DNA from: Prolixibacteraceae bacterium
GTDB lineage: Bacteria; Bacteroidota; Bacteroidia; Bacteroidales; Prolixibacteraceae
Direction: 5' to 3'
DNA length: 64,000 nt
NCBI GenBank assembly: GCA_021740385.1
Contig: JAIOZY010000020.1
Coordinates: 4,493-68,492 of the forward strand
The notes under the pieces were generated by a model, which made no database searches, was not told the DNA's origin, and saw only the letters and a list, made by a program, of their open reading frames with translations. Shown in pieces: positions 3,241 through 64,000 of this stretch. Position 1 is the stretch's first letter; every line of letters starts with the position of its first letter. The position numbers and the translations under genes were made by a program.

Positions 3241-3266
3241 TCGTCTAAATTTAAAGATTTCAAAGG

Positions 3267-3290
3267 TGATCCCGATGTACATCGGGATCA
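3267..3290. repeat. 24-nt perfect palindrome TGATCCCGATGTACATCGGGATCA (class B palindrome)
   Basis: Self-complementary over 24 nt. A 21-nt identical copy lies at 58661-58681, and variants at 43909-43926 and 43850-43868. Confidence 0.9.
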
Positions 3291-3338
3291 TTCTCATATG
3301 TGATTGGCATAATCATGCTCGTTTCATGGTAATATTTT

Positions 3339-6170
3339 TTACTGAATGTTTAATACTTGTTTTTTCCCGTTGTAAATAGTGAACATATCGGGTTTATCGC
3401 TGGGAACAAACGGTCTTGCTTCATCTTTTTTGAACACGTAAATGTCGATTTTGCGTTTTTCGCTCATGCCCATATAATATCCTTTTCGATCGTTCAGGGT
3501 AAGGGTTTTTGTTTCTTCATCGTATTCGAAAACGATTTCAGAAAAATCGCCCTTTTCATAATTGTAATTGATCCCCTCGTCTTCATAAAGCGTAAAAGAT
3601 GCATCGGCGCCGGTGTATACCATCAGTTTCAGGTTCCCGCCTGTTGGTTGCATGGCGTACTGTATTTCCGGTCCCATGGGAATTATTGAACCTTCTTTCA
3701 CGAAAAGGGGAATGCGGTTAAGGGGTGCATCGGCCACAATGGTTTGCCCGCCCCCGAGGTATTTTCCCGATTTAAAGTCGTACCACCCGGTTCCTTCAGG
3801 CAGGTAAACACCGCGTTCGCGTTGTTTGTAGTAACCCACAGGGCATACCATGAGGGCTTTCCCAAACATGAACTGGTCGGCAATGTTTTTCACCTTGTTG
3901 TCGTGGGCAAAATCCATAATCAGCCCGCGCATAATCACGGCATTTTCGTGCCAGGCGGAAGCAGACCATGAATAGATATAGGGCATCAGCCTGTATCTGA
4001 GTTTATCGTAATATACCATCGATTTGTATTCGGTCGAATTTTCGGGGGCGAGGTTATAAATTTCGCGGTAGGGGTATTGGCCGTGTATGCGGAATAACGG
4101 GCAGAAAACACCAAACTGGTACCAGCGTGTGTTAATTTCGCGCCACTCTTTCAGGTCGGCCGGTGTAGGGTTCATGTAGCGGCTTTCGACCGAGAATCCG
4201 CCAATGTCGGTGGTCCAGTATGGAATGCCCGACAGTCCCATGTTGATACCTGCAGCAATCTGGTCGCGAAGGTCGTTCCAGCGGGTAACAATGTCGCCGC
4301 TCCAGGTGGCAGCGCCATATCGTTGTTGCCCGGCAAATGCCGAACGGGTAAGGATAAACACCCGTTTATCAGGCGCTGTTTCCCGTTGTCCTTCATATAC
4401 CCCTTTGGCTTGCAACAACGAGTATGTGTTGAAGTATTCTTCACCCGATCCAAAAAAGTTGGGTGTCATGGTCGATTTTCGTTCTTCAATTGTTACGTTT
4501 GAGTGCATGTCGGGTTCGGTTGCATCGAGCCACCAGGCATCGATGCCTTTGCTGAAAAGTTTTTTGTTGAGGCCTTTCCAGAAAGTTTTCCGGGCCTCGG
4601 GGTTGTAGGCATCGTAAAAGGTGTTGAGGTAGCCGGGCCCTACCCAGTCGAGGTGTCCCAGTTCGATGTTGTTCATAAAGAGCCAGCCGTTTTCCTTAAA
4701 CAGTTCGTAGTTTTCGGTGCCGTTGTAAAATTTTGGCCATACCGATATCATGATGTGGGCGTTCATATCGTGCACATCGTCGATCATTTTTTCCGGATCG
4801 GGCCAGAATTGCGGGTCAAAGTCGTGGTCGCCCCATTTGTCCTCGGGCCAGTATTGCCAGTCGAGAACAATATTGTCGAAAGGAATTTTGCGTTTGCGGT
4901 ATTCTTTAACCACATCGACCAGTTGTTGCTGGTTGCGGTAACGTTCGCGGCTTTGCCACAGCCCCATGGCCCATTTGGGCATGATGGGCGATTTGCCGGT
5001 GAGCTCGCGATAGCCCGAAATTACTTCATCGGCATTGTTGCCTTTTACAAAATAGTAATCGATTTGCTTCCCGGATTCAGAATAGAGTGAGAGTTTATCC
5101 TGTTTGTCGGCGTAACCGGTATCCTGGTATGTTATACCAATATACGATACATTTGCATCGGGTTTCCATTCAATTTTGAGGTGCATTTTTTCGTCTTTTT
5201 TCAGGTCGAGATAAAATTTGTTGTACCAGGGGTTCCAGCACTGGCGCCATTTGTCGAGGATGAGTTCACCGTTGGCCCATACTTTCCAGTATCCGGCCAC
5301 ATAAATTTTGAATTTATGTTTCCCGTTCATTTCGGGTTCAAGATAGCCTTCCCAAACCACTTTGCTTTCCGGGGTCATTTCAAATTCTTCGGGGAAATTG
5401 TCCATGTCGTCGAGGGTGTTGTAAGCAATGGCATTTTCGGTTTTTTGTACAGCAAGGTTGTTGCTGCTGTTGTAGTAACTGGCTGTTAAGCCGCCCGGTT
5501 TCTGATCTTTGTCGTAAAGTTTGAGCGAACCAATTTGCTTGTAATCGCGCGGATCGCCAAAACGCGTTATGGAATAGTTATCCCAAAGGATTCCGTAATT
5601 TTTGCTGGAGTATAAAAAAGGCACTACGGCAACAATGTTATGTTGCATCAGTTCAACATCGAGGCCTTTGTAGTTTACCTCGCCGTTTTGGTGCTGGCCC
5701 AACCCGTAAAATGCCTCATCGGTGGGCGATTCAAAAACCTGCTGAAAAGCCGTCTCGTCGGTCGACTCATCAATTTGTTTACCGTAATAACGGCCGCCCC
5801 CGGTTTCTTCCTGTAATATGATTTTCCCATCGTTGTCGGTGAATTTAATTTCACCGGTTTGGGTATTTACCGTTGCATTTATTTTGGCGGTTGACAGTGT
5901 AACAGCATTTTTATCATTTGTTGTTTCCCAGTGAATATCGTTGGCTGGTTTGAGTGTTGTAACAAGGCTTTCGTTTTCAAAAACGGGTAACCCGGGTTTC
6001 GACACGGTAACCCGTATTATGTCGTCGGCATAAACTTTTAAAGCCATTTTTTCGTTTGTTTGGCTTATGTCAACTATTATCCCATTGTCCGTTTTTTGAA
6101 TTGCCTGGTTGCTGCACGATATTAAGCCGGTTGCTAAAAGCAGTAAAGCAAGGGTTTTTCTTGTTTTCAT
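3339..6170 (-). CDS. GH31 family glycoside hydrolase with a PA14 domain inserted N-terminal to the catalytic barrel; lipoprotein signal
   Basis: Signal MKTRKTLALLLLATGLISC. PA14-like stretch: SYYNSSNNL...VVWEGYLEPEMNGKHKFKIY. GH31 motifs: WQSRERY..IPFDNIVLDWQYW, DAWWLDATEPD, TWSGDI..SGIPYWTTDIGGF. Confidence 0.85.
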   Translation of the reverse strand: MKTRKTLALLLLATGLISCSNQAIQKTDNGIIVDISQTNEKMALKVYADDIIRVTVSKPGLPVFENESLVTTLKPANDIHWETTNDKNAVTLSTAKINATVNTQTGEIKFTDNDGKIILQEETGGGRYYGKQIDESTDETAFQQVFESPTDEAFYGLGQHQNGEVNYKGLDVELMQHNIVAVVPFLYSSKNYGILWDNYSITRFGDPRDYKQIGSLKLYDKDQKPGGLTASYYNSSNNLAVQKTENAIAYNTLDDMDNFPEEFEMTPESKVVWEGYLEPEMNGKHKFKIYVAGYWKVWANGELILDKWRQCWNPWYNKFYLDLKKDEKMHLKIEWKPDANVSYIGITYQDTGYADKQDKLSLYSESGKQIDYYFVKGNNADEVISGYRELTGKSPIMPKWAMGLWQSRERYRNQQQLVDVVKEYRKRKIPFDNIVLDWQYWPEDKWGDHDFDPQFWPDPEKMIDDVHDMNAHIMISVWPKFYNGTENYELFKENGWLFMNNIELGHLDWVGPGYLNTFYDAYNPEARKTFWKGLNKKLFSKGIDAWWLDATEPDMHSNVTIEERKSTMTPNFFGSGEEYFNTYSLLQAKGVYEGQRETAPDKRVFILTRSAFAGQQRYGAATWSGDIVTRWNDLRDQIAAGINMGLSGIPYWTTDIGGFSVESRYMNPTPADLKEWREINTRWYQFGVFCPLFRIHGQYPYREIYNLAPENSTEYKSMVYYDKLRYRLMPYIYSWSASAWHENAVIMRGLIMDFAHDNKVKNIADQFMFGKALMVCPVGYYKQRERGVYLPEGTGWYDFKSGKYLGGGQTIVADAPLNRIPLFVKEGSIIPMGPEIQYAMQPTGGNLKLMVYTGADASFTLYEDEGINYNYEKGDFSEIVFEYDEETKTLTLNDRKGYYMGMSEKRKIDIYVFKKDEARPFVPSDKPDMFTIYNGKKQVLNIQ

Positions 6171-6310: not shown

Positions 6311-9300
6311 TTACAACCTGGTATTGTTGTTTTGCGGTGCTTTAAAATATTTTTTCGCATATTGCGATGGGGTCATTTTGTATTCGTTTTTAAAGTGTTT
6401 TGTGAAATACCGGGGGTCGTTAAAACCAACTTTGTAGGCAATTTCCATCACGGTCAACTGGCTTTTTTCGAGTAGTTGGGCAGCCCGTCTGACCCGAAGT
6501 ATGCGGATGAATTCGATGGGGGTTTTGCCGGTAAGGGCTACCAGTTTGTTGTAAAGGTGCGCACGGCTTATACCAAATTCATTGCTTAGTTTTTCAACCG
6601 AAAAATCGGGCTCGTGCATGTTGTTTTCGGTGATGTCCTTGATTTTTTTCAGGAATTTTTCATCCAGTGAGGTAATATTAATTTCAGCGGGTTGCAGGTC
6701 GAAATTTTGCTGGTACAGTTTCCGCAGGGTTTTGCGTTGTTCAACGAGGTTTTTGATTTTTAATTCCAGTATTTCAAAATTGAACGGTTTTGTGATGTAG
6801 TCGTCGGCTCCGGTACCAAGTCCTTCAATTCGGTGTTGGTCGGTGGTACGTGCTGTAAGTAAAATAACGGGTACGTGCGATGTGCGGTTATCGGTTTTAA
6901 TTTTCCGGCAAAGCTCAATGCCATCCATCACGGGCATCATAATATCGCTCACAATCAAATCGGGCATTTCTTTCAGGGTTGTTTCCCATGCTTGCAGTCC
7001 GTTTGATGCTTCCATGATGGTGTAGTTTAACTTCAGATTGTCTTTCAGGTAGAAGCGGATGTCGGGATTGTCTTCCACCAGTAAAAGCTTAAAGTTACCC
7101 GTGCCTGCCGTTGGTTTTGCCCCCGGATGTTTTTCGCTTATCGGTTTTCCGGCCAGTAATTCTTTCGAAGGGCTTACCGTTTCAGTTTCAATGTGTTCCT
7201 TTACGGGTAGTGTTACTTTAAAACAACTTCCTTTGTCCACTTCGCTTTCTACGCTAATGTTGCCGCCGTGTAATTGGACAAATTCACGGGTTAGCGAAAG
7301 GCCAATACCGCTGCCCCTGTTAATTCCGGCATTTTCGGGTGCATTTTGTACAAAGCGTTCAAAAATAATTTCTTTTTTATCGGCAGGAATGCCAATGCCG
7401 GTGTCGCAAACCTGAATAATTACGTTTTGTTTTTCGGGGTCTTTTTTGTCATACAAAATGTTCACGTCAATTGTGCCGTTCCCGGGAGTAAATTTGAAAG
7501 CATTCGATAACAGGTTGAAAAGGATTTTTTCAATTTTGTCGAAGTCGAATGAAGCATTAAGTTCCTTAACATTCGAACTGAAATTTAACTCGATATTTCT
7601 CGATTCCGACAGGTCGGAAAACGAGGTTGTAACTTCGCGGCAAAATCCAATCAATTCATCTTCGCGAAGCACAAGCGATAGGCCCTGTACCTCGAGCCGC
7701 CTGAAGTCGAGCAACTGGTTTACAAGGTTAAGCAACCGCCTGCCGTTGTTTCTTACCCGCTGTAGTTGCTCCTTTGTTGTAACGTCTTTGGTTGTTTTAA
7801 TTATTTTTTCGAGGGGCGAAAGAATCAGGGTTAAGGGGGTGCGGAATTCGTGGCTTATATTGGTGAAAAACTTAATTTTCATCATGTCCATTTCATGCAC
7901 TTTGGCTGTTTCGATCCTTTCTTGTTGTATTAAAAATTTATTTCTTTCACGTTTGATAAAAAGCTGGATGGAGTAAAATATCACAAACAGAATTAAAATC
8001 AGGTAAATGGAGTAGGCCCATTTTGTTTTCCACAACGGGGGAGGAATGTTTATATGGAGCTGAATTTCTTTGCTTCGTACCAAATTGTCGGGGTCTGAGG
8101 CATAAACCCTGAAGGTGTATTCATCGGGGTGAAGGTTGGTGTATGTTGCTTCGCGCGAGGAAGAAGCCACTGTAGTCCACTCGGTGTTGAAACCTTCCAT
8201 TTTGTAGTGATACACTGTTTTTTCGGGAGTAAAATAATTGAGTGCCGCAAAAGAAATTGAAAAAGTTTTTTCGTAGTGTTTAAGGGTAATTTCGTCGACA
8301 TAATTGAGCGAAACCGGTAGCAATACCCGTTTGTTAATTTCTTCGCCCACTTTAACGGGTTTGTTTTGGATGCTCAGGTTGGATAAAACAATGTTGGGGT
8401 TATAAGGCAGTGAGCCCAGTTTTTCGGGCTGGAAAATGCAAAATCCGTCGGCGCCTCCAAAAACCAATTCCCCTTTACTGGTTTTCAGGGCAGCGTGTTC
8501 GTTGAATTCTTTACCATGCAGTCCGTCACGTTCGTCCCACACTTTAACCCTGAACGAGAGCTCATTGCCAATTTCCTCAATAATCAGGTTGCACAAACCC
8601 AAGGGGGTTCCCATCCAAATGTTCCCCTGGTCGTCTTCCAGTACCGTGAGAATGTTATTGTCGGGCAACCCGTCGTTTGTATTGAGTACCGTGAATTTTT
8701 GCGATTTTGGGTTGTACAGGTTAAGCCCGTCGCGTGTAGCAATCCAAACAAGCCCGCGGCTGTCGCAATAAATATCGAGGGTGGTGTTGCTGCTTATGCT
8801 GTTGGGCTCGTTGTTGCTGTAAAAGCGAATAAACCTGCCCGATTCTTTATCAAAAAGGTCGACCCCGTTAGCCGTTGCAAACCAAATGTTTCCGTCAATG
8901 TTTTCATCAATGGCCATGATGTAGTTTGAGTGGACTGAATTGGGCTTTTCGACATTGTAGTGGATGAAACGGTTGTTTTCGCGGTCGAATTTTTCAAGGC
9001 CACTGCCCAGGGTGCCAATCCAAATCTGGTTTTCTGAGTCTTCAAATACCGACCAAATTTCGTTGTCCGATATTGAATTGGGGTTGTTGGGGTCGTTCAG
9101 GTAGCGGGTGAAGTTTTTTCCGTCGAAATAATTTAAACCGCCGAGGTAGGTTCCAATCCAGAGCCCGCCTTCGTGGTCGATGCATAAATCGACAATGACA
9201 TCGTTGCCGAGGCTGTTTGGGTTGTTGGGGTTGTTTTTATATGTTTTAAAGGTGTTGTTTGTGCGGTTGAAATAGATCAGGCCCCCGCCATTGGTTCCAA

Positions 9301-10447
9301 TCCAAAGGTTTCCGAAACGGTCTTCAGCAAAGGTGTTTATATCCTCGTAGCTAAGCCAGTTAAGGCGGTATGGATGTTGGGTATAGGTTTCGAATTTAAA
9401 CAAATCGGGGTGGTAATACGATACCCCTTTTTTATAGGTCCCCAGCCAAATGATGTTTTCGTCGTCTTTATACATGCATGTAATGCTGTTTTGCGAAATG
9501 CTTTTCTCGTCGCCGGGGTCGTTGGTGTAATTCTTTACCGAAAAATTCTTTTTTGAAATAACAATCAGGCCCCCGTGGTCGGAGCCAACTGCAATGTTGC
9601 CATCAATGTCTTCGCGGGCACAGGTAATGATATTGCTGTTAATCGGGTGTGTTTTTGATCCGGTGCAAAAATGGACTGTTTTTTCCGTTTGGGGGTTGAA
9701 GTAGTAGATCCCATCGTTTTCATTACGCGAATAAACCCACAGGTTGTTATCCGAATCGGGAAGCAGGCTAAAGTTATATTCGCCGGGCTGTACGCGTGTT
9801 GTAAGGTGATTGTAACGTGCAATGACCGTTTGCGTTAGGGGGTTGAACTTTTCGAGCACAAAATTGCTGTGCAGTAACCAAAAATTGCCATCGGGGGCCC
9901 GTTCGCAACTTGTAAGCGGCGAATTTGACAGTCCTTCATCGCCGCCGGGTGCAAAAAGCCTGATGCTGTCTGTAGTGGCATCGCGCCTGTAAAGTCCGTC
10001 GATTTGGTTTATAATCCAGAAGTTGTTGCCATCATCTGCCAGGGTATTAATGATGTTGGTAGTTGGTACGGGAATGTTCAGGGGCATCAGTGAGTCGGGG
10101 TGGCTGAATGTTTCGGTTTCCGGATTGAAAATATCTAACCCCGATGATGTTACAATCCAGAGCTTTCCGTTGTTGTCTTCATGAATGTTCGAAACAAGAT
10201 TGTCGTTAATCGAATAAAGGGGGTTCGTGCCTTTGCGAAAAACCCGGCATTCGTATCCGTCAAAACGGTTCAGGCCGTTAACGGTACCAATCCAGATAAA
10301 GCCCCTTGAGTCTTTATAAATGGTGTTAATCTGATTGCTCGACAAACCACTGTTAACATCCAGTTTTTTAAACTGAAAGTTTTTTGTCTGGGCCGGAAGG
10401 GCCGAAACAATCAGTAACAGGAATATGTTAGCAGCGAGTTTGATCAT
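6311..10447 (-). CDS. Hybrid two-component system regulator (periplasmic beta-propeller/Y_Y_Y sensor, HisKA, HATPase, receiver, AraC-type HTH)
   Basis: Repeated ..IWIGT..GL..F propeller units and one TM segment. H-box FFTNISHEFRTPLT, G-boxes DTGIGI / GSGIGL, receiver LLLVEDNPD..DLIVSDIMMP, C-terminal AraC HTH. ATG at 10447; the track start at 10456 is TTG. Confidence 0.9.
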   Translation of the reverse strand: MIKLAANIFLLLIVSALPAQTKNFQFKKLDVNSGLSSNQINTIYKDSRGFIWIGTVNGLNRFDGYECRVFRKGTNPLYSINDNLVSNIHEDNNGKLWIVTSSGLDIFNPETETFSHPDSLMPLNIPVPTTNIINTLADDGNNFWIINQIDGLYRRDATTDSIRLFAPGGDEGLSNSPLTSCERAPDGNFWLLHSNFVLEKFNPLTQTVIARYNHLTTRVQPGEYNFSLLPDSDNNLWVYSRNENDGIYYFNPQTEKTVHFCTGSKTHPINSNIITCAREDIDGNIAVGSDHGGLIVISKKNFSVKNYTNDPGDEKSISQNSITCMYKDDENIIWLGTYKKGVSYYHPDLFKFETYTQHPYRLNWLSYEDINTFAEDRFGNLWIGTNGGGLIYFNRTNNTFKTYKNNPNNPNSLGNDVIVDLCIDHEGGLWIGTYLGGLNYFDGKNFTRYLNDPNNPNSISDNEIWSVFEDSENQIWIGTLGSGLEKFDRENNRFIHYNVEKPNSVHSNYIMAIDENIDGNIWFATANGVDLFDKESGRFIRFYSNNEPNSISSNTTLDIYCDSRGLVWIATRDGLNLYNPKSQKFTVLNTNDGLPDNNILTVLEDDQGNIWMGTPLGLCNLIIEEIGNELSFRVKVWDERDGLHGKEFNEHAALKTSKGELVFGGADGFCIFQPEKLGSLPYNPNIVLSNLSIQNKPVKVGEEINKRVLLPVSLNYVDEITLKHYEKTFSISFAALNYFTPEKTVYHYKMEGFNTEWTTVASSSREATYTNLHPDEYTFRVYASDPDNLVRSKEIQLHINIPPPLWKTKWAYSIYLILILFVIFYSIQLFIKRERNKFLIQQERIETAKVHEMDMMKIKFFTNISHEFRTPLTLILSPLEKIIKTTKDVTTKEQLQRVRNNGRRLLNLVNQLLDFRRLEVQGLSLVLREDELIGFCREVTTSFSDLSESRNIELNFSSNVKELNASFDFDKIEKILFNLLSNAFKFTPGNGTIDVNILYDKKDPEKQNVIIQVCDTGIGIPADKKEIIFERFVQNAPENAGINRGSGIGLSLTREFVQLHGGNISVESEVDKGSCFKVTLPVKEHIETETVSPSKELLAGKPISEKHPGAKPTAGTGNFKLLLVEDNPDIRFYLKDNLKLNYTIMEASNGLQAWETTLKEMPDLIVSDIMMPVMDGIELCRKIKTDNRTSHVPVILLTARTTDQHRIEGLGTGADDYITKPFNFEILELKIKNLVEQRKTLRKLYQQNFDLQPAEINITSLDEKFLKKIKDITENNMHEPDFSVEKLSNEFGISRAHLYNKLVALTGKTPIEFIRILRVRRAAQLLEKSQLTVMEIAYKVGFNDPRYFTKHFKNEYKMTPSQYAKKYFKAPQNNNTRL

Positions 10448-10494
10448 TCCTGCCAAAAATAGTATTTAATGATCAGAAAAATAAATTCAAAAAC

Positions 10495-11559
10495 TTAAAG
10501 CCACTTTTTTCGTCTGAAATAAACAATCATCACAATTGCCAGAATTGCCATTATTGCCAGCATAATGAAATAGCTGTATCTGAAACGAAGTTCGGGTATA
10601 TATTCAAAATTTGTACCGTAAATACCGGCAATAAAAGTGAGCGGGATGAAAATTGCGGCAAACATTGTAAGCACTTTCATCACGTCGTTAGCACGGTTGG
10701 CCAGGTTGGTGTTGTAAATGTTCAACTGGTCGCCAATCATTATGTAGTAAACGTCTGCTGTTTCGAGGGCGTGGTTAAGCAGGTCGTCGAGGTCGTTGAA
10801 ATAGGGGAGCGACGATTCTTCGATTAATTCAGAATCGGTGTTTTTTAGATTTTTGGTAATGTCGCGTACCGGCCTTATTGTTTTGCGCAGGTAGCTTATC
10901 TCGGTTTTTAACCTGAAAATTTCTTCTATAACCTGTTTGCCGTTTTTTGAAAGGATTTTTTCTTCGTTTGCTTCAACCTGTTCGCCAATTGAGCTGAGAC
11001 ACACGCTGTAATGGTCGACAATGGTATCGAGAATACGGTACATCAGGTAATCGGCATTGCTTTTGCGTAATTTACCGGTATTGTTGCGCAGGCGTTCCCT
11101 TATAGAGTTGAAAAATTCACCCGTTTTTTCCTGAAAGGATACGACATAATCGGGTCCGAGAATCAGCGTAATATGATCGGCAATAATGCTTTTCGACACT
11201 TCATTATAAACAAGCTGTTTCAGGAACAAAATGATGTTGTTGCCGTCTTCAAGGTATTTTGGGCGCTGGTCGGTGTTTACAATATCATCGAGCACCAGTG
11301 GCGATAAGCCAAAGGCTTTTCCAACCTCCGATATGGCAGTTGATTCGTGCAGCCCGTCAATGTTAATCCAGTTGATATGCCCCGGGGCCATGGCCGATAT
11401 CAGGTCACCGGTATTTTCGGTTTCCGTTTCCCTGATGTTTTCTTTGTTGTATGAAATGAGCCTGAACCTTGGCCTTTCCATCAATTTTTGGCCAATGAAC
11501 GTCAGTTCACCGGGCGCTTGTCCGATTAACTTTTTTCTGTTTTTAAAAAAACGAGCCAT
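10495..11559 (-). CDS. corA: CorA-family magnesium/cobalt transporter
   Basis: 354 aa, two C-terminal TM helices, YGTNF variant of the GMN-type motif (GIYGTNFEYIPEL). Confidence 0.8.
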   Translation of the reverse strand: MARFFKNRKKLIGQAPGELTFIGQKLMERPRFRLISYNKENIRETETENTGDLISAMAPGHINWINIDGLHESTAISEVGKAFGLSPLVLDDIVNTDQRPKYLEDGNNIILFLKQLVYNEVSKSIIADHITLILGPDYVVSFQEKTGEFFNSIRERLRNNTGKLRKSNADYLMYRILDTIVDHYSVCLSSIGEQVEANEEKILSKNGKQVIEEIFRLKTEISYLRKTIRPVRDITKNLKNTDSELIEESSLPYFNDLDDLLNHALETADVYYIMIGDQLNIYNTNLANRANDVMKVLTMFAAIFIPLTFIAGIYGTNFEYIPELRFRYSYFIMLAIMAILAIVMIVYFRRKKWL

Positions 11560-54394: not shown

Positions 54395-55774
54395 ATGAAA
54401 GCAATAACATTAGGGATTTATGTATTGGCTTTATTGGCGCTGGTATCATGCAACCCAAAAGCAAATAAGGATGTTGAGAAGCAAACAACACCCAACCAAT
54501 CGGAGGCATTTTTTCCCGAATGGTCGGACGATGCCGTAATTTATGAAGTTAACGTTCGCCAGTATACACCTCAGGGTACATTCAAGGCATTTCAGCAACA
54601 CCTTCCCCGCTTGAAGGAACTGGGCGTTGAAATCTTATGGTTCATGCCCATTCACCCCATATCGGAAAAGAACCGGAAAGGCACACTGGGATCGTATTAT
54701 GCCGTTCAGGATTACAAAAAAGTGAACCCTGAATTTGGCACCCTCGACGATTTTAAACACCTGGTTGAAGCCTGCCACCAACTGGGTTTTAAGGTATTGC
54801 TCGACTGGGTGGCCAATCACACCGGATGGGACAATGTTTGGATTGAGGAACACCCCGAATGGTACACGACCGATTCTACCGGCACCATTGTTTCGCCGGT
54901 TGCCGATTGGAGTGACGTTGCCGGCCTGAACTACGAAAACAGTGAAATGCGTGCAGCCATGATTGATGCACTGGAATACTGGGTTGAAGAGGCAAATATT
55001 GATGGTTACCGTTGCGATGTAGCCGGTATGGTTCCGGTCGATTTTTGGGAAGATGCCCGTGCTGCCCTCGACAGCATTAAGCCTGTGTTTATGCTGGCTG
55101 AAGACGAAGCTGTAAAAGATTTACTCAACAATGCTTTCAACATGAATTACGGTTGGCATTTCCATCACATCATAAACCAGATTGCAAAAGGTGAAGCCGG
55201 TGTTGCCGAGGTGAAAGATTACTTTGCCGTGGTCGATTCGACCTACCCTTTAGGAAGTTACCCCATGCAATTTACCAGCAACCACGACGAAAACAGTTGG
55301 AACGGAACCGTTTATGATCGCCTCGGCAATGCTGCAAAAACCATGGCCGCCCTTACGTTTACCGTAGCGGGTATGCCCCTTATTTATACCGGACAGGAAA
55401 CCGGAAACACCAAGAGCCTTGAATTTTTCGAAAAGGATGAAGTGGAGTGGGGCGATTCCGAAATGCACGAATTTTATGCAACCCTCATCGATTTGAAGCA
55501 GGAAAACACCGCGCTTTGGAATGGCGAAGCCGGGGCGCCAATTCGTTTTTTGAAAACCACGGGCGAAAGCAGCTTGCTGGCCTTTACCCGCGAAAAAGAT
55601 GAGAACAATGTTGTAGCCCTTTTTAACCTGAGTGCAAACCCGGTTCAGGATACAATTGTTTGTGAAACATTAACGGGAACCTACACCGATGCTTTTAACG
55701 GCAAAGAATGGACGTTTGAAGAATCGAGCCCGGTAAGCCTTAAAGGCTGGGAATATCGGATTTTGGCGGAATAA
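54395..55774 (+). CDS. GH13 alpha-amylase (compact, lipoprotein signal)
   Basis: Lipobox LALVSC. GH13 regions VLLDWVANH, GYRCDVAGM, MLAEDE and FTSNHDEN. Confidence 0.85.
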   Translation: MKAITLGIYVLALLALVSCNPKANKDVEKQTTPNQSEAFFPEWSDDAVIYEVNVRQYTPQGTFKAFQQHLPRLKELGVEILWFMPIHPISEKNRKGTLGSYYAVQDYKKVNPEFGTLDDFKHLVEACHQLGFKVLLDWVANHTGWDNVWIEEHPEWYTTDSTGTIVSPVADWSDVAGLNYENSEMRAAMIDALEYWVEEANIDGYRCDVAGMVPVDFWEDARAALDSIKPVFMLAEDEAVKDLLNNAFNMNYGWHFHHIINQIAKGEAGVAEVKDYFAVVDSTYPLGSYPMQFTSNHDENSWNGTVYDRLGNAAKTMAALTFTVAGMPLIYTGQETGNTKSLEFFEKDEVEWGDSEMHEFYATLIDLKQENTALWNGEAGAPIRFLKTTGESSLLAFTREKDENNVVALFNLSANPVQDTIVCETLTGTYTDAFNGKEWTFEESSPVSLKGWEYRILAE

Positions 55775-56018
55775 TGGCTTTGTCTTATTTTTCAATTTAT
55801 TTACAGTTGGTTTTTTTTGTCTCCCCAATAACTTTTACAAAGTATTACTATTTGCTGAAGGTTTGTTGTATTTTTAGGGTTTGTATTTTTAAACAGGCAA
55901 CCTCATAAATGGAAACAGACTTTATAAAAAGCCCTTCAACCCTATGCTAAAGCCTTATTTGCTAATGAGCAACAGGCAAAAGTGAGATTGGGAGGGCATA
56001 AACAAAATGTAAGCTAAT

Positions 56019-56850
56019 ATGCCACAGAAAAAAAGACCCATGTTAAAAGTATATCACCGATTCTTGGATGAATCGGGCGATACTACTTTTTATGGTAAAA
56101 AGAAGCGGATAATTGTTGGTGATAATGGAGTCTCAAAAAACATTTATTCTGGGCATGGTTAAGTTTAAAACAAAACTTGAACCAATACGGGAACATATTA
56201 TTAAAATGCAACAAGAAGTTGCCAAAGATGAATTTTATAAAGATGTGCCAAGCATTAAAAAGAAAGTAAACAAAAACGGATATTTCTTTCATGCAAAAGA
56301 TGATATTCCTGAGGTACGAGAAAAATTCTTCAGGTTCATAAAAACGATTAATTGTTCATTTGAAGCGGTAGTAGCTCGCAAATTACCAGATTTGTACGAA
56401 ACAAAACATAAAGGGAACGAAGCATGGTTTTATGCCGATTTGCTTTCGCATCTGCTAAAAAATAAATTCACCAACCACGATAAGATGGTGCTGAACATTG
56501 CTAGCAGAGGTAAATCAACCAAAAATCAAAACCTGGATTTAGCTTTGGCAAAAGCTAAGGAACGTTTTTATGCAGCCAATCCTGAAAAGGAATTGAAAAC
56601 AAAAGTGGTTTTTAATGTTTTGGAACAAACAGGAGAACCTTTGCTAAATGTTGCCGATTATTTTTGTTGGTGCATTCAAAATGTATTTGAAAGGGGACAA
56701 ATGCGGTATTATAATTTTATGAAAGATCAAATATCAACAGTTGTAGATTTGTATGATTTTGATAGTTATGGAAAGAAAGGCTGGCCGAATTATTATGGGA
56801 AAAACAATCCGTTAACGACTATAAATGAAATAAGCCCACTTTCACACTAA
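56019..56850 (+). pseudogene. DUF3800-family gene interrupted by a +1 frameshift in an A6 run
   Basis: Frame A (56019-56162) encodes MPQKKRPMLKVYHRFLDESGDTTFYGKKKRIIVGDNGVSK and then stops. Frame B (ORF 56113..56850) continues TFILGMVKF... Removing one A from AAAAAA (56135-56140) joins them. DESGD and the late ..VADYF.. motif fit DUF3800. Confidence 0.65.
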
Positions 56851-57083
56851 GACGAGTTTTAACTTGTCAATGGCATGGAGCCAACGTTCATGTGATGCAG
56901 ACTTACGAATACAAATATACGGAATTTTATAATAAAAGCAAGCAGACAAATAATATCAACACGAACGTTTTTTTATTGGCAGATATGTTTGTTTTCATAT
57001 TGAATTGAGAAAATGAATTTGTTAAAATGCATGTTTATTAATGAAAAATATTTCAAGGCCATAATAAAAAAAGGGAATAAATC

Positions 57084-58376: not shown

Positions 58377-58499
58377 TGAAAAAAGGTGTCCATATTCGTG
58401 ATAGTGCACAGTTAGTAACGATTTTAATTAAATAGTAAAATTTTCTTCAACAGGAATCAATCTGCAATTTTTATATCCAACCACCTTTTAAGCGTGAAA

Positions 58500-58681
58500 A
58501 CAGGAAGGCTGGTCTCTGGTCGCCAGGTGCTGTTCACTCGATGCCGGATGCTGGCATCGCCCGCCGTAGCCTGCGACACCATTAAAGCTTTAGCGACACC
58601 CGGTTGGCGAAGGTGGAGCATCGCCCGCCATGGTTATTACACAGGTTGTTCGAAGCATTTGATCCCGATGTACATCGGGAT
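58500..58681. repeat. GC-rich non-coding block built of hairpins and short direct repeats, ending in a class B palindrome
   Basis: GATGCCggatgctGGCATC (58540-58558); GCATCGCCCGCC twice (58553-58564 and 58618-58629); GCGACACC twice; CACCCGGTTGGCGAAGGTGG (a class A-like variant); GATCCCGATGTACATCGGGAT (58661-58681). Confidence 0.75.
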
Positions 58682-58682
58682 T

Positions 58683-58710
58683 GGAATTTGAAATTTGGAA
58701 TTTGAAATTT
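58683..58710. repeat. Tandem repeat (GGAATTTGAAATTT) x2, i.e. four 7-nt units
   Basis: Direct reading of ggaatttgaaatttggaatttgaaattt. Confidence 0.9.
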
Positions 58711-58957
58711 AATTTATAGTTTAGAAGTCTGAAACCAATACAAGTAAAGCGCCGGTGCATCAAAAACCCGTCATTCCGCTAATGCCCGCTTTTCACAGGA
58801 ATAAGTCTGTTGTATTATTGAAGTTTGAAAAACATAAAAACCCTTTTAATGATTTTGATATATGAAACAAAACCTGAACATATCCAACAAATATCGTTCG
58901 ATATATTCGAAAAACATGAACATATAAACAAGTTCTCGGTAATTTAAAAAGAACAAT

Positions 58958-59755
58958 ATGGAAATAATAAACTTAATAAAATGGCCAATTACTATTCTTA
59001 TTGGATGGTTGATTACGCTTTTGGTTTTTAGAAAAAAATTGAAAAAGTTGTCTTTCAACTGGGATAAAAAAGAAGGAAACTTGGATTTATCTGGAAATTA
59101 CGACCAAGGGCCAAGACTTGTAACAAAAACGAAAACTGGAGAACTTCAAAATTTAAGTAATGATGATATTAGAAGAACTTCAGAATTGATTGTAAATAAA
59201 GACAGTAGTAAATACTTCAAGTTCTCTGATAAACTTGAACGTTTCTTGATTGATGAAGATGGTGCAAAAATTAGAAACCTACGTTTTCGCCTTGGAGTTC
59301 AACAAAAAGGATTAAAAATATTAAGTATAAACTTAAAGGGATATCTGATAGTCTCGAAAATAATTAGAAACCCTAATGATAATGTTGGTTGGGGGAGTAA
59401 TTGGCCAGAACTAAAACTCGATAAAGATTTCCTCCCAGCCTTGACGGATTATTGGTCAATAGACCATGAAATTGACACTGAAGATTCAACTTCTCCATTC
59501 AACAAAATGGACAATACAGATGATATTATCAAAATGACAATAAAGATTTATGCAACTGGATTCTTAGAATCTGGCAAAAAAATCTTTGGTAGCCAACAAT
59601 ATGATTTAGATGAAAATAGCTGTATATATGGAAGATTTAAGCTACGTGAGCTTGGAGAGAAAACAATTTCTAATGAGGCTTTCAATGAAATAATTACTGC
59701 GAAAGAAGAAGGAGATTGGAGTTTTATAAGAAAAACTACCGAGAACACGCAATAA
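58958..59755 (+). CDS. Hypothetical protein with an N-terminal TM anchor (cassette 1)
   Basis: 265 aa, WPITILIGWLITLLVF anchor, no family recognised. Confidence 0.5.
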   Translation: MEIINLIKWPITILIGWLITLLVFRKKLKKLSFNWDKKEGNLDLSGNYDQGPRLVTKTKTGELQNLSNDDIRRTSELIVNKDSSKYFKFSDKLERFLIDEDGAKIRNLRFRLGVQQKGLKILSINLKGYLIVSKIIRNPNDNVGWGSNWPELKLDKDFLPALTDYWSIDHEIDTEDSTSPFNKMDNTDDIIKMTIKIYATGFLESGKKIFGSQQYDLDENSCIYGRFKLRELGEKTISNEAFNEIITAKEEGDWSFIRKTTENTQ

Positions 59756-59788
59756 AAAACATAGGACGTAAAGCTCTAAATTTGAACG

Positions 59789-59871
59789 ATATAACATTTA
59801 ATAAACGGCTTGGTAACTTGATAGGTAGGAGCTACGAAATGCCCTACGTTTTTTATTGCCATCCGTTGTGC
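59789..59871 (+). other. attC-like site 1 (weakest of the four)
   Basis: ATATAAC ... GTTGTGC. Internal pairing AATAAA/TTTATT and GGC/GCC. An alternative fold, TAAAAAAC (59753-59760) with GTTTTTTA (59848-59855), encloses a bulged stem. Confidence 0.35.
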
Positions 59872-59924
59872 GGCATTGTCAAAACCCTTAATCCAAAGTT
59901 GTAACCAATAAAATTAAAGCAAAT

Positions 59925-60632
59925 ATGAAATCGAAACCAAAATGGTACTATAATGAGGCTTCGCATTCAGGAATTAACTATTCCAACCAAGAGATTGTAG
60001 AAGATTATGATAATCAACATACGAGATTTAGGAACTACAAAACCGAAGCTGACAAGATTTCACAAGCCTTAGGGTTAAAGGAAAATGACGTAATTATTGA
60101 CATGGGGTGTGGAAGTGGTGAATTATCAATTGAATTGTCAGAGAAATGCAAAAAAATATATACTGTTGACATCTCACAGCAGATGATTGACTTATGCAAA
60201 AATAAAATTTCAAAAAACGAGATTGATAATATTATTCCTATTTGTGCTGGATTATTGACATATCAACATAATGACGAACCTGTTGATGCTGTAATCTCAA
60301 ATGTTGTATTGCATCACTTGCCTGACTTTTGGAAAATGATTGCTTTAAAGAACATATATAATATTTTGAAACCAGGGGGCAGATTTTTTTTATTCGACAT
60401 TGTATTTTCATTCCCTGTTGAAAATCATGAAGAATATATTTCTAACTGGTTGACCATGATGAAAGAAAAGGCTGGAGAGAAAATGATGGAAGAGTCAGTT
60501 GTTCACATTAGAGATGAGTTTAGCACCTATGATTGGATTTTAGAAAAAATGATTGAATTAACTGGTTTTAAAATCATGCATATTGCGGACGAAATGCCGA
60601 ATACGAAAGCATTTATTTGTATTAAAGAGTGA
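59925..60632 (+). CDS. Class I SAM-dependent methyltransferase (cassette 2)
   Basis: Motif I VIIDMGCGSGELS, post-I YTVDIS, motif IV-like ISNVVLHH. Confidence 0.75.
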   Translation: MKSKPKWYYNEASHSGINYSNQEIVEDYDNQHTRFRNYKTEADKISQALGLKENDVIIDMGCGSGELSIELSEKCKKIYTVDISQQMIDLCKNKISKNEIDNIIPICAGLLTYQHNDEPVDAVISNVVLHHLPDFWKMIALKNIYNILKPGGRFFLFDIVFSFPVENHEEYISNWLTMMKEKAGEKMMEESVVHIRDEFSTYDWILEKMIELTGFKIMHIADEMPNTKAFICIKE

Positions 60633-60692
60633 GCAGAATAAAAATAATAGTACCCTTTTGAAAACAACGAATTGACAATAAATACAACGACC

Positions 60693-60820
60693 GCACAACA
60701 AGGCATCAAACCCAATAGCCGCGGGTGTTTCATAGGATACTGATGTGGATAATTGAAAATTTTGTACTTTTATGAAAAGACAGTGGAAGCGGCTACTGGG
60801 TTTATGCCCGAACGTTATAA
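60693..60820 (+). other. attC-like site 2
   Basis: GCACAAC-aa-GGCATCAAACCCAATAGCCGC (60702-60722) pairs with GCGGCTACTGGGTTTATGCC (60789-60808), 19 of 21 positions, then cgaac-GTTATAA (60814-60820). Confidence 0.5.
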
Positions 60821-60832
60821 AACATTGTAAAA

Positions 60833-61894
60833 ATGGAACATATAATAAACATAGTAAAATCATTATTTGAACCAGTAGGTATATTATTGACATTGATTAT
60901 TCTTTTAATATTGAATACATGGATATTTAAAAGGATGAAATCAGTTACATCAGATGGTAATATTGCCAAGAGGTCTATTTCATTTTCTATTATACTTATT
61001 GGTGTACTTGTATTTATTTTATCTCTACCTATCGACAAATCACTTAAAGGACAGATAATGAGTTTTCTGGCCATAATAATAAGTGCTGGAATTGCGTTAA
61101 GTTCAACCACCATATTAGGTAACCTTATTGCTGGATTCATGAATAATTCAATGAACCGCTTTAGGAATGGAGACCTTATAAAAATTGGAGACCTTCAAGG
61201 CAGAGTTACTAAAAAAAGTATCTTCCATACCGAAATTCAACTTGAAGACAGTAATTTTATCACGATACCTAATCTATACATTGCTAATAATCCTGTCAAG
61301 TTAACTCGTAAAACAAATACGGTAATATCCACATCTGTTTCATTGGGCTATGACGTATCACGGATTCGAATTGAAGAAACCCTGAAAGAAGCTGCTATTT
61401 TAACTGGATTAACGGACCCCTATGTTTATATTACAGACTTGGGAGATTTTTCAGTCGCTTATAAAATACATGGATTTCTTGATGATAGTAATAAGTTTTT
61501 TAGCACTCAGTCTCTATTGAATGGCAACGTAATGGATAATCTTCATAAAAAAGGAATAGAGATTGTTTCACCAACTTTTATGAACCAGAGAAGAGTAGAT
61601 GAAAAGGAATTTATTCCAACGAAAGATGTTAAAAAATCAATTCCTAAAAATGAATCTTCCCCAGAACAATTAATTTTTTCTGAAGCAATCGAATCGGGGA
61701 AAATTGAGAAAAAGAAAGATTACCTTAAAGAGATAGATAAAAAACAGGAATTGCTAAAGGAAGAACTAAAGCAATTAAAGGATAAAAAGGAGATTGAGAG
61801 AGCCAAAGCTACTATTAGCCGAAATGATGAGTTGAAAGCAAAAATTGAAAAAAATATTGAAGAACAAATCAACAAAAATAAGGACTCTGCATAA
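60833..61894 (+). CDS. MscS-family mechanosensitive channel with a Lys/Glu-rich coiled-coil tail (cassette 3)
   Basis: Three TM segments, then the pore-lining helix GNLIAGFMN and beta-domain GDLIKIGDLQGRVTKKSIFHTEIQ. The C-terminal ~90 aa are KE-rich. Confidence 0.75.
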   Translation: MEHIINIVKSLFEPVGILLTLIILLILNTWIFKRMKSVTSDGNIAKRSISFSIILIGVLVFILSLPIDKSLKGQIMSFLAIIISAGIALSSTTILGNLIAGFMNNSMNRFRNGDLIKIGDLQGRVTKKSIFHTEIQLEDSNFITIPNLYIANNPVKLTRKTNTVISTSVSLGYDVSRIRIEETLKEAAILTGLTDPYVYITDLGDFSVAYKIHGFLDDSNKFFSTQSLLNGNVMDNLHKKGIEIVSPTFMNQRRVDEKEFIPTKDVKKSIPKNESSPEQLIFSEAIESGKIEKKKDYLKEIDKKQELLKEELKQLKDKKEIERAKATISRNDELKAKIEKNIEEQINKNKDSA

Positions 61895-61902
61895 GAAACA
61901 AC

Positions 61903-62039
61903 GTTTTATAACACACAATATAAAACAGTTGGGGTTCAGTGGTTTGCGAGTGTTTGGTTCTCGCCTCAACTTTTTCCAACGGTGGATAGGAACGAGCTCC
62001 GAAAACCCAACCGTTTCATATTGTCAAACGTTGTGTGCC
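61903..62039 (+). other. attC-like site 3
   Basis: GTTTTATAAC, then ACAATATAAAACAGTTGGGGTT (61915-61936) pairing with AAAACCCAACCGTTTCATATTGT (62002-62024), then caaac-GTTGTGTGCC (62030-62039). Confidence 0.5.
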
Positions 62040-62791
62040 AAATCAAAAAAAACGGGTAACACACAATTTATCAGGGCGATGAGAAAGTATTTCAGTTCTG
62101 TGCATTCAACTTAATATCCAGATTAGATTTCTGACTCGTTCTTTCATTTTTCAGGAGTAAAAGGATTTTTAAATATTTGTACAAGGATTTGCAGAATAAC
62201 GATTTGATTTTTTTGTTCTATGATTTATTGATGAAATTATATTTTATCCGGATTGGCTAAAAGATTCTTTCTTAAACTTTTTTTCGTTCGGACTAAAAAT
62301 ATTTGCCGTCACGATTGGAGTGTTTCGCTAAGAAAAAGGGATTTTTAGGTTTTGTAATTATTCTCAGGAGTCAAAAGGATTATTGATTTTTAGTTGCGGT
62401 TCTGGTTGACTAAAAAAAAGTCCGCTTTTCAAACTTAGATTTGAAAAAATAATAATAAAATATTACCGTATCAGATTGATTATTTGAAACATAAAGCAAG
62501 GATTTAATGAAACGTTTGTTTGAAAAGATTGCTCATTTGAGTAACGTCACGGGCGGATTAAAATTCTGTCCGATTTTGGGATTTGATTACTTAAAAACAT
62601 GAGAGAGCCAACGAATAAAATGTAAAAAACATCTCAAACTGTTTGAGAAAAATAATTACTGATATGATTAGTTCTAAAATAAATTGTTTAATTTCAGGAC
62701 TTTGATTTATAAAACAAGCGATAGAAACTGTGCAAACGGTACTGGTTTGTGTGTTTGACTTTTTCTTCGATAAAGACAAGAAATTAAATTC

Positions 62792-62927
62792 GGCACACAA
62801 CAATGTGTAAAATTAATCGCGGGTATAGTGCTAATTTTCAGCTTACTGCCCCGCTTCAAATTCGGTGTGTATGCGGACTGGAACGATGCACGAAAACCGC
62901 GCCTAATCTTACACGTAAACGTTAGCG
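62792..62927 (+). other. attC-like site 4
   Basis: GGCACACAAC-aat-GTGTAAAATTAATCGCGGGTATAGTGC (62805-62831) pairs with GCACGAAAACCGCGCCTAATCTTACAC (62888-62914), then gtaaac-GTTAGCG (62921-62927). Confidence 0.5.
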
Positions 62928-62935
62928 GCAAAATA

Positions 62936-63571
62936 TTAAGAAGCTTCGTCTATATAATAATCGATAGAATTTTTGAGATTTAGATTAACGTCCTTATATC
63001 GTTGATTTAAAATTTTCCTTATTAGCCAAGGTGTAATAAATAGCAAAAAACTGAAAATAAATAGCAGACTTGATAGATTTGTTGAAATAGCCCAGGCTTT
63101 TATGCCACCAATATTCAGAAATAATCCGAGTAGAAAAAATATCCCCATTGAATAGAATAAGGCTAAATAGATAATAAAATCAATTTTAATAATTTTTGCA
63201 AGTCTTTCACCAAAATAAATACCTGCTTCCTTAATTGGGAGATTGTCCATTTGATTATTTAATATACTATACCGAACAATCTCAGAACTTGATTTAAATA
63301 TAAGAAATAACCCAGCAAACATAAATGGCAGCACAATAGCTGTTGATAATTCGATTTTTAGATATATAAACCCATAAATAACAAGCCCGATTAAAGTTAG
63401 TAGGCTGGTTGAATAAATGAATATCTTAAGTTTAATTTCTTTCATGATTTTTGAAAAACCGCTACTATGAGATTTGCGTATGATTGATTGTATATAATCT
63501 TGATTATTCAAATTATAAGCTTTCGATTCATGTGCAAGTTTCCAAATTGATTTTAAGCTATTTTGATTCAT
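62936..63571 (-). CDS. Multi-pass membrane protein downstream of, and overlapping, an ECF sigma gene (possible anti-sigma partner)
   Basis: 211 aa with four hydrophobic segments. Its start overlaps the sigma gene's end by 14 nt. Confidence 0.45.
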   Translation of the reverse strand: MNQNSLKSIWKLAHESKAYNLNNQDYIQSIIRKSHSSGFSKIMKEIKLKIFIYSTSLLTLIGLVIYGFIYLKIELSTAIVLPFMFAGLFLIFKSSSEIVRYSILNNQMDNLPIKEAGIYFGERLAKIIKIDFIIYLALFYSMGIFFLLGLFLNIGGIKAWAISTNLSSLLFIFSFLLFITPWLIRKILNQRYKDVNLNLKNSIDYYIDEAS

Positions 63572-64000
63572 ATCTATTAGAAATTTTAATTAGTTTATTC
63601 TTGATTCTATTAATTTTGACGCCAACATTACTTGTTGAAATACCTATGGTTCTAGCAATATCTTCATAGGAAAATTCATCTAAATACATAAGTATAATTG
63701 CTTTCTCATTGATGTTGAGCTCATTGATGATTGAGTAAAGCTTATTCTTTTCTTCTGATTCAGTAAAGCTAAAAGAAACAGGAATTTCATATTCATTTTT
63801 AGATAGTTCAGTATGTACAGGTTGAATACTAAGTTTTCTAATTATATCAATGGCAGAGTTTATCGCGACTCTGTACATCCAAGTAGAAAAACTTGATTGA
63901 TGTTTAAAATTCGGAAATGCTCTCCATAATCGGATAAGGATTTCTTGAAAATAATCTTCCCAGTACGGGTTTTTGAAAAAGTATGAATTGCAAACCTTAT
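63558..64000 (-). CDS. ECF-type sigma-70 factor, N-terminus outside the window
   Basis: The frame stays open above the track's internal Met: ..WEDYFQEILIRLWRAFPNFKHQSSFSTWMYRVAINSAID (region 2). Region 4: SYEDIARTIGISTSNVGVKINRIKNKL. Confidence 0.8.
   Translation of the reverse strand, partial: KVCNSYFFKNPYWEDYFQEILIRLWRAFPNFKHQSSFSTWMYRVAINSAIDIIRKLSIQPVHTELSKNEYEIPVSFSFTESEEKNKLYSIINELNINEKAIILMYLDEFSYEDIARTIGISTSNVGVKINRIKNKLIKISNRYESK

Follow-up and report, generated by a model that had tools for sequence, protein, structure and literature searches.

The window analysed here is a stretch of 64,000 nucleotides from a contig assigned to a Prolixibacteraceae bacterium (JAIOZY010000020.1, positions 4,493 to 68,492 of the forward strand). 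Its last part, from position 58932 to position 64000, is made up of five or more integron-type cassettes, and the window shows no recombinase. We consider it very likely that this array is a cluster of attC sites lacking an integrase (CALIN), its probable enzyme being a 278-residue Xer-like recombinase of Ignavibacteria. A CALIN is defined by two or more attC sites spaced by less than 4 kb, with the integron integrase absent nearby (Cury et al., 2016; default of IntegronFinder 2). In the window, four such sites follow each other at spacings of 0.8-1.2 kb, a fifth lies just past the window end, and no integrase gene is found nearby. Among the features of a complete integron, an IntI with its specific domain is lacking in the window, and an attI site is lacking at its left junction. 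The first-pass annotation, made from the letters of the window, had proposed either a CALIN or the distal part of a chromosomal integron; the CALIN is supported by matches to a covariance model of the sites (R3), by junction-precise variation between loci and by the lack of a recombinase. The sites belong to a coherent and widely distributed attC family, which is unlike classical attC sites and is tied to a recombinase devoid of the I2 helix region. This family is apparently undescribed and is probably a new integron variant.

The limits of the cassettes are given by a junction signature. All five cassettes begin, after G|TT, with 9-10 bases matching the reverse complement of their own R'' box without a mismatch. 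The cassettes, with their open reading frames (ORFs), are as follows:

58932..58941, + strand: left array junction, GTTCTCGGTA, with the crossover between G 58932 and T 58933
58933..59865, + strand: cassette 1 (933 nt), ORF 58958-59755; junction GTTCTCGGTA (58932-58941), own R'' box TACCGAGAAC (59737-59746)
59866..60814, + strand: cassette 2 (949 nt), class I S-adenosylmethionine (SAM)-dependent methyltransferase ORF 59925-60632; junction GTTGTGCGG (59865), own R'' box CCGCACAAC (60691)
60815..62030, + strand: cassette 3 (1216 nt), MscS-like channel ORF 60833-61894; junction GTTATAAAAC (60814), own R'' box GTTTTATAAC (61903)
62031..62921, + strand: cassette 4 (891 nt), ORF-less; junction GTTGTGTGCC (62030), own R'' box GGCACACAAC (62792)
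62922..64000, + strand: cassette 5, cut at the window end, with its genes on the - strand; junction GTTAGCGGC (62921-62929), own R'' box GCCGCTAAC (window-equivalent 64137-64145, read in the Logan contig L001)

Besides the fixed GTT/AAC, 33 more bases match over the five junctions, for which simple arithmetic gives a chance of about 4^-33. We know of no process that produces this pattern except G|TT recombination between successive attC sites. As a product of such recombination, the pattern therefore places the beginning of the array at 58932 and its continuation beyond the window. The array had previously been drawn from 58809 to 62927; the pair GTTCTCGGTA/TACCGAGAAC corrects the start, and GTTAGCGGC, complemented by GCCGCTAAC outside the window, corrects the end. 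Among the four pairs of bracketing repeats described at that stage, three are exact and even longer than stated, whereas the weak pair 58809/59789 is wrong. Complementarity of the cassette start with its own R'' box is also found in L110, L116, L118, L127, L129, and L192 (L numbers designate the loci compared). L127 has an “inverted” layout (8378-10840). Another candidate array, L041, was discarded: its 9-nt junction match lies inside a coding sequence, R3 is negative there, and the match is attributed to chance.

The sites themselves were delimited with a hairpin scanner that looks for imperfect hairpins flanked by ..AAC(N0-7) and (N0-8)GTT.., calibrated on 17 real attC sites from class-1 integrons on plasmids (scores 5.5-15). 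The covariance model R3 was built from 13 aligned sites (alignment A7) with an RNAalifold consensus. Seven of these come from L110, the others from L086, L116, L117, L118, L119, and L129, and none from the window. R3 was run on the whole window with filters off. The sites, read from R'' to R' on the + strand and having the - strand as folding (bottom) strand, are:

59740-59871, + strand: attC1, 132 nt, scanner score 15; R3 match 59737-59874 (- strand), 72.8 bits, E 6e-16
60693-60820, + strand: attC2, 128 nt, scanner score 16.5; R3 match 60690-60823 (- strand), 48.0 bits, E 8e-10
61906-62036, + strand: attC3, 131 nt, scanner score 16; R3 match 61903-62039 (- strand), 75.8 bits, E 1e-16
62795-62927, + strand: attC4, 133 nt, scanner score 12; R3 match 62792-62930 (- strand), 69.6 bits, E 3.5e-15
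from about 64137, about 137 nt beyond the window end: attC5, read in L001 (79 nt); truncated R3 match over these 79 nt, 28.5 bits

The four scanner scores reach or exceed the top of the background range. Scores of at least 15 are absent from the other 58.7 kb of the window and occur three times in 1.36 Mb of control loci, with a differing geometry. All four R3 matches lie on the - strand, as expected of + strand cassettes, and the next-best match in the window has 10.6 bits (E 1.6). The controls, 80 Bacteroidota-type loci and 7 class-1 integron loci with 1.41 Mb in total, give a top R3 score of 16.8 bits (E 0.95). R3 does not match class-1 attC sites, so that the family and the classical sites are distinct at the model level. 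Surrogate models R1 and R2, made from 4 and 10 class-1 attC sites, leave the window unmatched; they also miss the known long attC sites of arr-3 and aac(6')-29a. The first-pass annotation had already noted a long imperfect hairpin with ..AAC and GTT.. ends after each ORF and had proposed a covariance-model search as a check; R3, the model used here, matches all four sites with E values from 1e-16 to 8e-10. Its hairpin lengths of about 80-140 nt turn out to be uniform, 128-133 nt. Its first hairpin had been placed at 59789-59871; as the scanner delimits a 132-nt attC1 at 59740-59871, the earlier interval is therefore the inner part of this site.

All four sites are imperfect inverted repeats within the attC range (57-141 nt), with R''/R' boxes, a central spacer and a variable loop. 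They share a common geometry with 2-3 unpaired bases after AAC and 5-6 before GTT. The R'' boxes are CGAGAAC, GCACAAC, TTATAAC, and ACACAAC, and the R' boxes GTTGTGC, GTTATAA, GTTGTGT, and GTTAGCG. Hence, in the core consensus RYYYAAC/GTTRRRY, the AAC/GTT part is invariant and the RYYY/RRRY part fits only partly, as had been remarked from the heptamers. Conserved G·T pairs are seen on the bottom strand of attC1 (59864/59747 and 59847/59761), a site that overlaps the stop codon of its ORF, and of attC3 (62029/61913, 62017/61922, and 62012/61927). For attC3, the bottom strand folds at -23.8 kcal/mol vs. -17.9 kcal/mol for the top strand. The two or three extrahelical bases sought in each folded bottom strand are lacking: attC2 alone has a bulged base, a single one at 60708. 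At its base, attC2 is similar to the attC site of arr-3, a class 1 cassette, and its bottom strand folds as DNA at -20 kcal/mol (z -3.25). Just inside the stem, the bottom strands of attC1, attC3, attC4, and the L086 site have in common the loop motif TTTCG.AGCTC..T.CCTATC. Other family members have GTGCT-rich blocks in common, and the loop is thus not fully variable. These shared loop motifs suggest a common descent of the sites.

Across the family, structure is kept while sequence diverges. In a model-guided alignment of 26 distinct sites (A8), 91.1% of the cells are paired vs. 63.0% in shuffles, and compensatory changes affect both partners in 16 of the 18 stem pairs. Covariation scores 0.614, a value that none of 500 shuffled alignments reaches (0.166 for shuffles); displacing the partners by 1-3 columns lowers it to 0.08-0.13. 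On the bottom strand, G·T is conserved at two pairs, namely the one adjoining the R box (AAC-G with T-GTT; 23/24 sequences) and the one twelve base pairs into the stem (22/24). Read on the top strand, the same positions are A×C mismatches. A bulged base occurs in only 4 of the 26 sites, including attC2; the remaining 22 are without extrahelical bases.

Mobility of single cassettes with junction precision, which the first-pass annotation had named as a further check, is seen for the MscS cassette. This cassette is known in three contexts: the window, L110, and L105-L108. In L110, a contig of 3.87 Mb, an MscS homologue (76% identity) sits within a run of + strand cassettes, between a SnoaL and a baeRF cassette, neighbours other than those in the window; cassette and attC together are 73.6% identical at the nucleotide level. 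Each cassette of this run ends with a site of 131-134 nt with a junction complementarity of 9-10 nt, and the run is headed by a divergently transcribed tyrosine recombinase. In L105-L108, four contigs from other samples, the identity is 94.8% over exactly 60815-61913: the homology begins with the first T after the crossover G (60815) and stops just after the AAC of R'' (61913). There, the MscS cassette (L105 2290-3388; also in L106, L107, and L108) is bounded by TT.../...AAC, lacks the rest of its attC, and lies outside any array, beside a 143-aa fragment of an IS110-family transposase. L106 also carries a second orphan array (2444-4566), located 3 kb upstream of the MscS gene, whose three family attC sites come after AbiEii, alpha/beta-hydrolase, and haloacid dehalogenase (HAD)-hydrolase genes. 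The MscS protein has many homologues with 66-94% identity in Marinilabiliales and other Bacteroidales. As for cassette 1, an ORF1 homologue (L086) is preceded by a 132-nt family attC of the same geometry; upstream of that site, about seven copies of a GACAC(A/T)GTT(A/C)GA-like motif are found (L086 4280-4540). In the Marinifilum ORF1 homologue (L085), no attC was seen.

The enzyme that may act on these sites was sought in the window and in related genomes. Over the 64 kb of the window, tblastn with IntI1 and the family recombinase (E up to 10 / up to 1) finds no tyrosine recombinase or remnant, and none of ten mid-sized ORFs tested is a recombinase. A metagenome scan with the L110 recombinase as query returned 80 loci. 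In L110, L112, L114, L118, L129, and Ignavibacterium album (L192), all of them loci having a recombinase at least 69% identical to that of L110 and showing the site, the sequence ..ACGCAATATTGCGTAAAGAAYTWT|GTT stands upstream of the 278-aa recombinase gene. The distance from the GTT junction to the start codon is 93-97 nt where it was measured (L110, L118, and L129). In all six loci, the sequences diverge right after GTT (GTTAGCGGTA, GTTGTGAGTA, GTTATCAGAC, GTTAGCAGCA, GTTAGTGGCA, and GTTGGCGGCA), and in four of the six, the bases that follow complement the R'' box of the first family attC detected downstream. Between L118 and L129, the identity is 91.8% over the gene start and the site, and past GTT the two are unrelated. 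From these alignments, the conserved site, which carries a 14-bp perfect palindrome (ACGCAATATTGCGT), appears to behave as an attI, with cassettes stacked next to it at G|TT. The left junction of the window is not similar to it. In I. album JCM 16511 (L192, CP003418, 6495-9905), a single 3.3-kb unit lies between the attI and a family attC of 98 bits; it contains a ComF-like helicase gene and dprA, which are natural-transformation genes, and looks like one large cassette.

The recombinase is always 278 residues long and is 70-86% identical across Ignavibacterium, Stygiobacter, Rosettibacter, and many metagenome-assembled genomes (MAGs). It passes the cut-off of NF040815 (XerA / “integron integrase”; 226.8 bits, cut-off 220) and remains below that of TIGR02249 (integron integrase; 206.9, cut-off 265). 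Its alignment with IntI1 runs end to end (E 4e-47), including the ..SP(F/L)D tail, with about 42 IntI1 residues absent. Compared with VchIntIA (PDB 2a3v), residues 183-240 are replaced by 15 amino acids. The best structure match, with 133 bits and no large gaps, is XerA (PDB 5hxy). The recombinase lacks the IntI-specific insertion (I2 helix region). An insertion-bearing integrase was found in none of the 90 loci searched, all family-attC loci included, at up to 10 kb from the attC sites.

A mechanism can be proposed on this basis. Each unit consists of a gene, or of none, and of an attC-like site of about 130 nt whose bottom (-) strand would fold as single-stranded DNA. In the predicted fold, an R box closed by AAC/GTT (9-10 bp in the circular form of the cassette) is followed by a short unpaired spacer with unequal sides of 2-3 and 5-6 nt, then by a stem of 18-20 bp with the conserved G·T wobbles and by a variable loop of 60-70 nt. 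A tyrosine recombinase, most likely the 278-aa Xer-like enzyme encoded beside the attI that heads the Ignavibacteria arrays, would cleave the folded bottom strand inside AAC, that is at G|TT on the top strand, and would exchange one strand with another attC or with attI, replication resolving the product. Cassettes would be excised as circles and then re-inserted. Strand choice would come from the G·T wobbles, whose counterparts on the other strand are A×C. With no enzyme in cis, the array of the window would be inert and silent or would be mobilised in trans.

In classical integrons, recombination uses the bottom strand of attC (MacDonald, 2006, as cited in PMC7790495; PMC2727003), and acquisition of the I2 helix has been presented as the innovation that enabled recombination of folded single-stranded attC sites, the extrahelical bases being the landmarks that are read (PMC7790495). 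Because I2 reads the extrahelical bases, an enzyme without this insertion would fit sites that carry wobbles in their place. On balance, we favour a broader proposal, with some reserve: an integron lineage spanning Ignavibacteria and Bacteroidota may exist whose Xer-like recombinase never had, or has lost, I2 and whose reactive strand is marked by G·T wobbles, the window holding one of its orphan arrays. If so, this lineage would be either a living relative of the pre-I2 integron ancestor or a second solution to the recognition of single-strand sites, and the orphan array would lie in, or would have been assembled with, a Prolixibacteraceae genome.

The array shares many features with integron cassettes, attC sites, and CALINs. 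Cassettes are on the same strand and each has a terminal imperfect inverted repeat in the 57-141 nt range, with invariant ..AAC/GTT.. ends, an unpaired central spacer, and conservation of structure rather than of sequence. The crossover is at G|TT and the cassette start complements its own R''; ORF-less and reversed cassettes occur, and the integrase is out of reach. In contrast with integron attC sites, 22 of the 26 family sites have no extrahelical base and the two conserved bottom-strand G·T wobbles are found instead; the circular form has an R box of 9-10 bp instead of 7; the two sides of the spacer differ strongly (2-3 vs. 5-6 nt); and the length is nearly fixed (128-134 nt) despite diverging sequence, with RYYY/RRRY followed only partly. 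With complete integrons (class 1; Vibrio cholerae superintegron), L110, L118, L129, and I. album share a divergent recombinase gene, an attI about 95 nt away, and cassettes joined at G|TT. However, their 278-aa recombinase has no IntI insertion, scores below the TIGR02249 cut-off and would not pass as IntI under the intI_Cterm criterion, and their attI carries the perfect palindrome ACGCAATATTGCGT.

Xer recombinases also act in other mobile systems. In CTX phage and other integrative mobile elements exploiting Xer (IMEX) at dif, a folded hairpin of single-stranded DNA is joined to a double-stranded site by a Xer recombinase that has no I2 helix; a single strand exchange takes place, which replication resolves. 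These elements are entire phages or islands, inserted where chromosome dimers are resolved, whereas small single-gene cassettes in tandem, with their own hairpins, are found here. In the pdif/dif modules of Acinetobacter plasmids, small gene modules are moved by Xer-type recombinases. Their boundaries are 28-bp double-stranded XerC/XerD sites that alternate in orientation, in contrast with the folding site of about 130 nt at one end of the present units. The archaeal XerA family (NF040815) is the best family and structure match of the 278-aa recombinase; however, XerA resolves chromosome dimers at dif and has no cassette arrays, and the ..KSPFD tail at the C-terminus of the recombinase resembles the ..RSPLD tail of IntI.

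Several points weigh against a CALIN served by the Xer-like enzyme. With no recombinase in the window, the locus gives no direct clue to the acting enzyme. The recombinase of Ignavibacteria is unusually conserved, with identities of 70-86% and an invariable length, which would also suit a housekeeping Xer, and a classical IntI may be encoded elsewhere in the genomes that bear it. The arrays beside it are sparse to R3, often with one match per 4-6 kb, R3 detecting only part of the cassettes in complete platforms. With DNA parameters, the bottom strand folds only modestly better than the top strand, doing so in 18 of 24 sites (mean difference -1.25 kcal/mol, Wilcoxon p 0.02). Accordingly, the array might be a classical CALIN served by an ordinary I2-bearing IntI encoded elsewhere, the Xer-like gene having a housekeeping role in dimer resolution and the “attI” being merely an insertion target. 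We regard this as quite unlikely. The recombinase does resemble a core gene in its high conservation and constant length; recombinases “intermediate between IntI and Xer” found by one or two attC sites in a few cases were judged not to be IntI (Cury et al.); IntI is able to insert cassettes at non-att genomic sites (bioRxiv 10.1101/2022.09.11.507474); and complete integrons have been reported in Ignavibacteriae (PMC9024848). Against these stand the six independent loci where differing cassettes start from G|TT at a conserved site, 93-97 nt from the gene in the three measured, together with the lack of an insertion-bearing integrase at distances of up to 10 kb from the family attC sites in the 90 loci and the lack, in the sites, of the extrahelical bases that I2 reads. 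It is also possible, though improbable, that the contig is chimeric at about 58.7-58.9 kb, in which case a real array from an AT-rich Ignavibacteria-like genome of the same sample would have been joined to the Prolixibacteraceae sequence. The step in GC content there, from 0.43 to 0.32, matches the Ignavibacteria loci (0.32-0.39), an independent Logan assembly of the same run stops at 58744 and restarts at 58863, named members of the recombinase family come only from Ignavibacteria, and synteny with relatives is lacking. Yet a higher AT content than that of the host is normal for horizontally acquired cassettes, and a second AT-rich island (55.8-57.0 kb) is located inside the undisputed part of the contig. 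The MscS family is native to Marinilabiliales, where homologues of 66-79% identity have core-like contexts, and Logan unitigs also break inside attC1, attC3, attC4, and attC5, as expected at such repeats.

Two further explanations concern the hairpins themselves. They come after each ORF and their conserved wobbles are on one strand only, so they could have acted mainly as RNA, either as long terminators or attenuators or as antisense structured RNAs, with G·U pairs as RNA features. This is very improbable: no T-run follows the hairpins, the wobble strand is antisense to the genes, so that an mRNA would have A×C mismatches, Rfam finds nothing, and both the complementarity of 9-10 bases with the foot of the own hairpin and the homology breaks at G|TT would be left unexplained. 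Intrinsic terminators in particular were discarded, the hairpins being about 130 nt long with loops of 60-70 nt and ending in ..C|GTT without a T-run. As long palindromes of similar length in intergenic DNA, the sites also recall copies of a repeated element, such as repetitive extragenic palindromes and bacterial interspersed mosaic elements (REP/BIME) or miniature inverted-repeat transposable elements (MITE). Such an origin is hardly credible for four stems that are almost without common sequence and keep their pairing by compensatory changes, that have no copy in the other 59 kb of the window, and each of which travels with its gene. We retain an integron-type array without its enzyme as the best account of the region.

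These results bear on how integrons are counted. Surveys dismissed recombinases without the I2 region near attC sites as “not IntI” (PMC4889954). Platforms such as that of L110 fail the IntI criterion of integron-finding software and would therefore be filed as CALINs or missed. In Bacteroidetes proper, only In0 elements and later one complete integron were recorded (Néron et al.), and the view of the first-pass annotation that integrons are uncommon in Bacteroidota agrees with their rarity in Bacteroidetes genomes (PMC9024848). No description of integrons in Marinilabiliales or of the recombinase-attI module was found in the literature, in a limited library where absence is no proof. If the proposed lineage is real, current surveys under-count integrons in Bacteroidota, and the combination of an I2-less recombinase, an attI, stacked cassettes, and bulge-free attC sites would open the origin of integrons to direct tests; the carriers include I. 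album JCM 16511, a type strain in culture. For the Prolixibacteraceae genome, the last 5 kb of the window are marked as horizontally acquired, exchangeable genes.

The three unrelated same-strand ORFs of the first-pass annotation are all present. ORF 58958-59755 (cassette 1) encodes a hypothetical protein of 265 aa with an N-terminal transmembrane segment and no Pfam family; only three homologues are found among 5.8 billion proteins. ORF 59925-60632 (cassette 2) is assigned to the SAM methyltransferases (Pfam Methyltransf_25/11, E 1e-19 to 1e-20) and ORF 60833-61894 (cassette 3) to the MscS-like channels (Pfam MS_channel_2nd and MS_channel_3rd). In cassette 4, all + strand ORFs are at most 31 aa long, and - strand ORFs of 70 and 74 aa overlap the attC. 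Cassette 5 carries two genes on the - strand, both held by the Logan contig L001: a membrane protein of 211 aa (62936-63571), which resembles an anti-sigma factor by its position alone, and an extracytoplasmic function (ECF) sigma factor (63558 to about 64049; Pfam Sigma70_r4_2) that runs past the window end. The Logan assembly of the same sample (L001, L002, L003, and L084; SRR12088348) breaks at 58744, 58863, 59804/59820, 61937, 62895, and 64213. Breaks in attC1, attC3, attC4, attC5, and near the left junction are expected if k-mers are shared or if neighbours vary.

The array follows a polysaccharide-utilisation region with SusE, GH31, GH13, and GH8 (glycoside hydrolase, GH) genes, and GC content drops from 0.43 (1-58700) to 0.32 (58933-64000), in line with the AT-rich turn perceived from about 58.7 kb. 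The DNA left of the crossover (58700-58931) is neither a family attC according to R3 nor similar to the conserved attI. A degenerate attC ending at 58938 was sought there, with best scanner scores of 6.5-7 and a negative R3. Just left of the first junction are the direct repeats AAAAC(C/A)TGAACATAT (58869, 58911) and TT(T/C)GAAAAACAT(A/G)AA (58824, 58906). The repeats at 58824-58931 may be a decayed attC or a foreign attI, a site that neither the hairpin scanner nor R3 recognises. Rfam, run on the whole window at the gathering threshold and on 58.3-64 kb by E-value, gives nothing relevant, and the tRNA scan found none. When the locus was compared in relatives via the flanking GH8 gene, the best relatives reached 79% identity only and were without synteny; close GH8 homologues (60-80% identity; L004-L083) come from MAGs whose labels span many phyla, and their neighbours are not conserved. 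The second AT-rich island, at 55750-57050 (GC 0.33) within the glycoside-hydrolase cluster, contains an ORF of 245 aa (56113-56850) with no Pfam family and no family attC close by. Finally, a GC-rich non-coding element without an Rfam match separates the GH8 stop codon from the array (58486-58708). It contains GCATCGCCCGCC in two copies 64 nt apart (58554, 58618), followed by a perfect 10+10 palindrome (58662-58681) and by TTGGAATTTGAAAT repeated twice in tandem.

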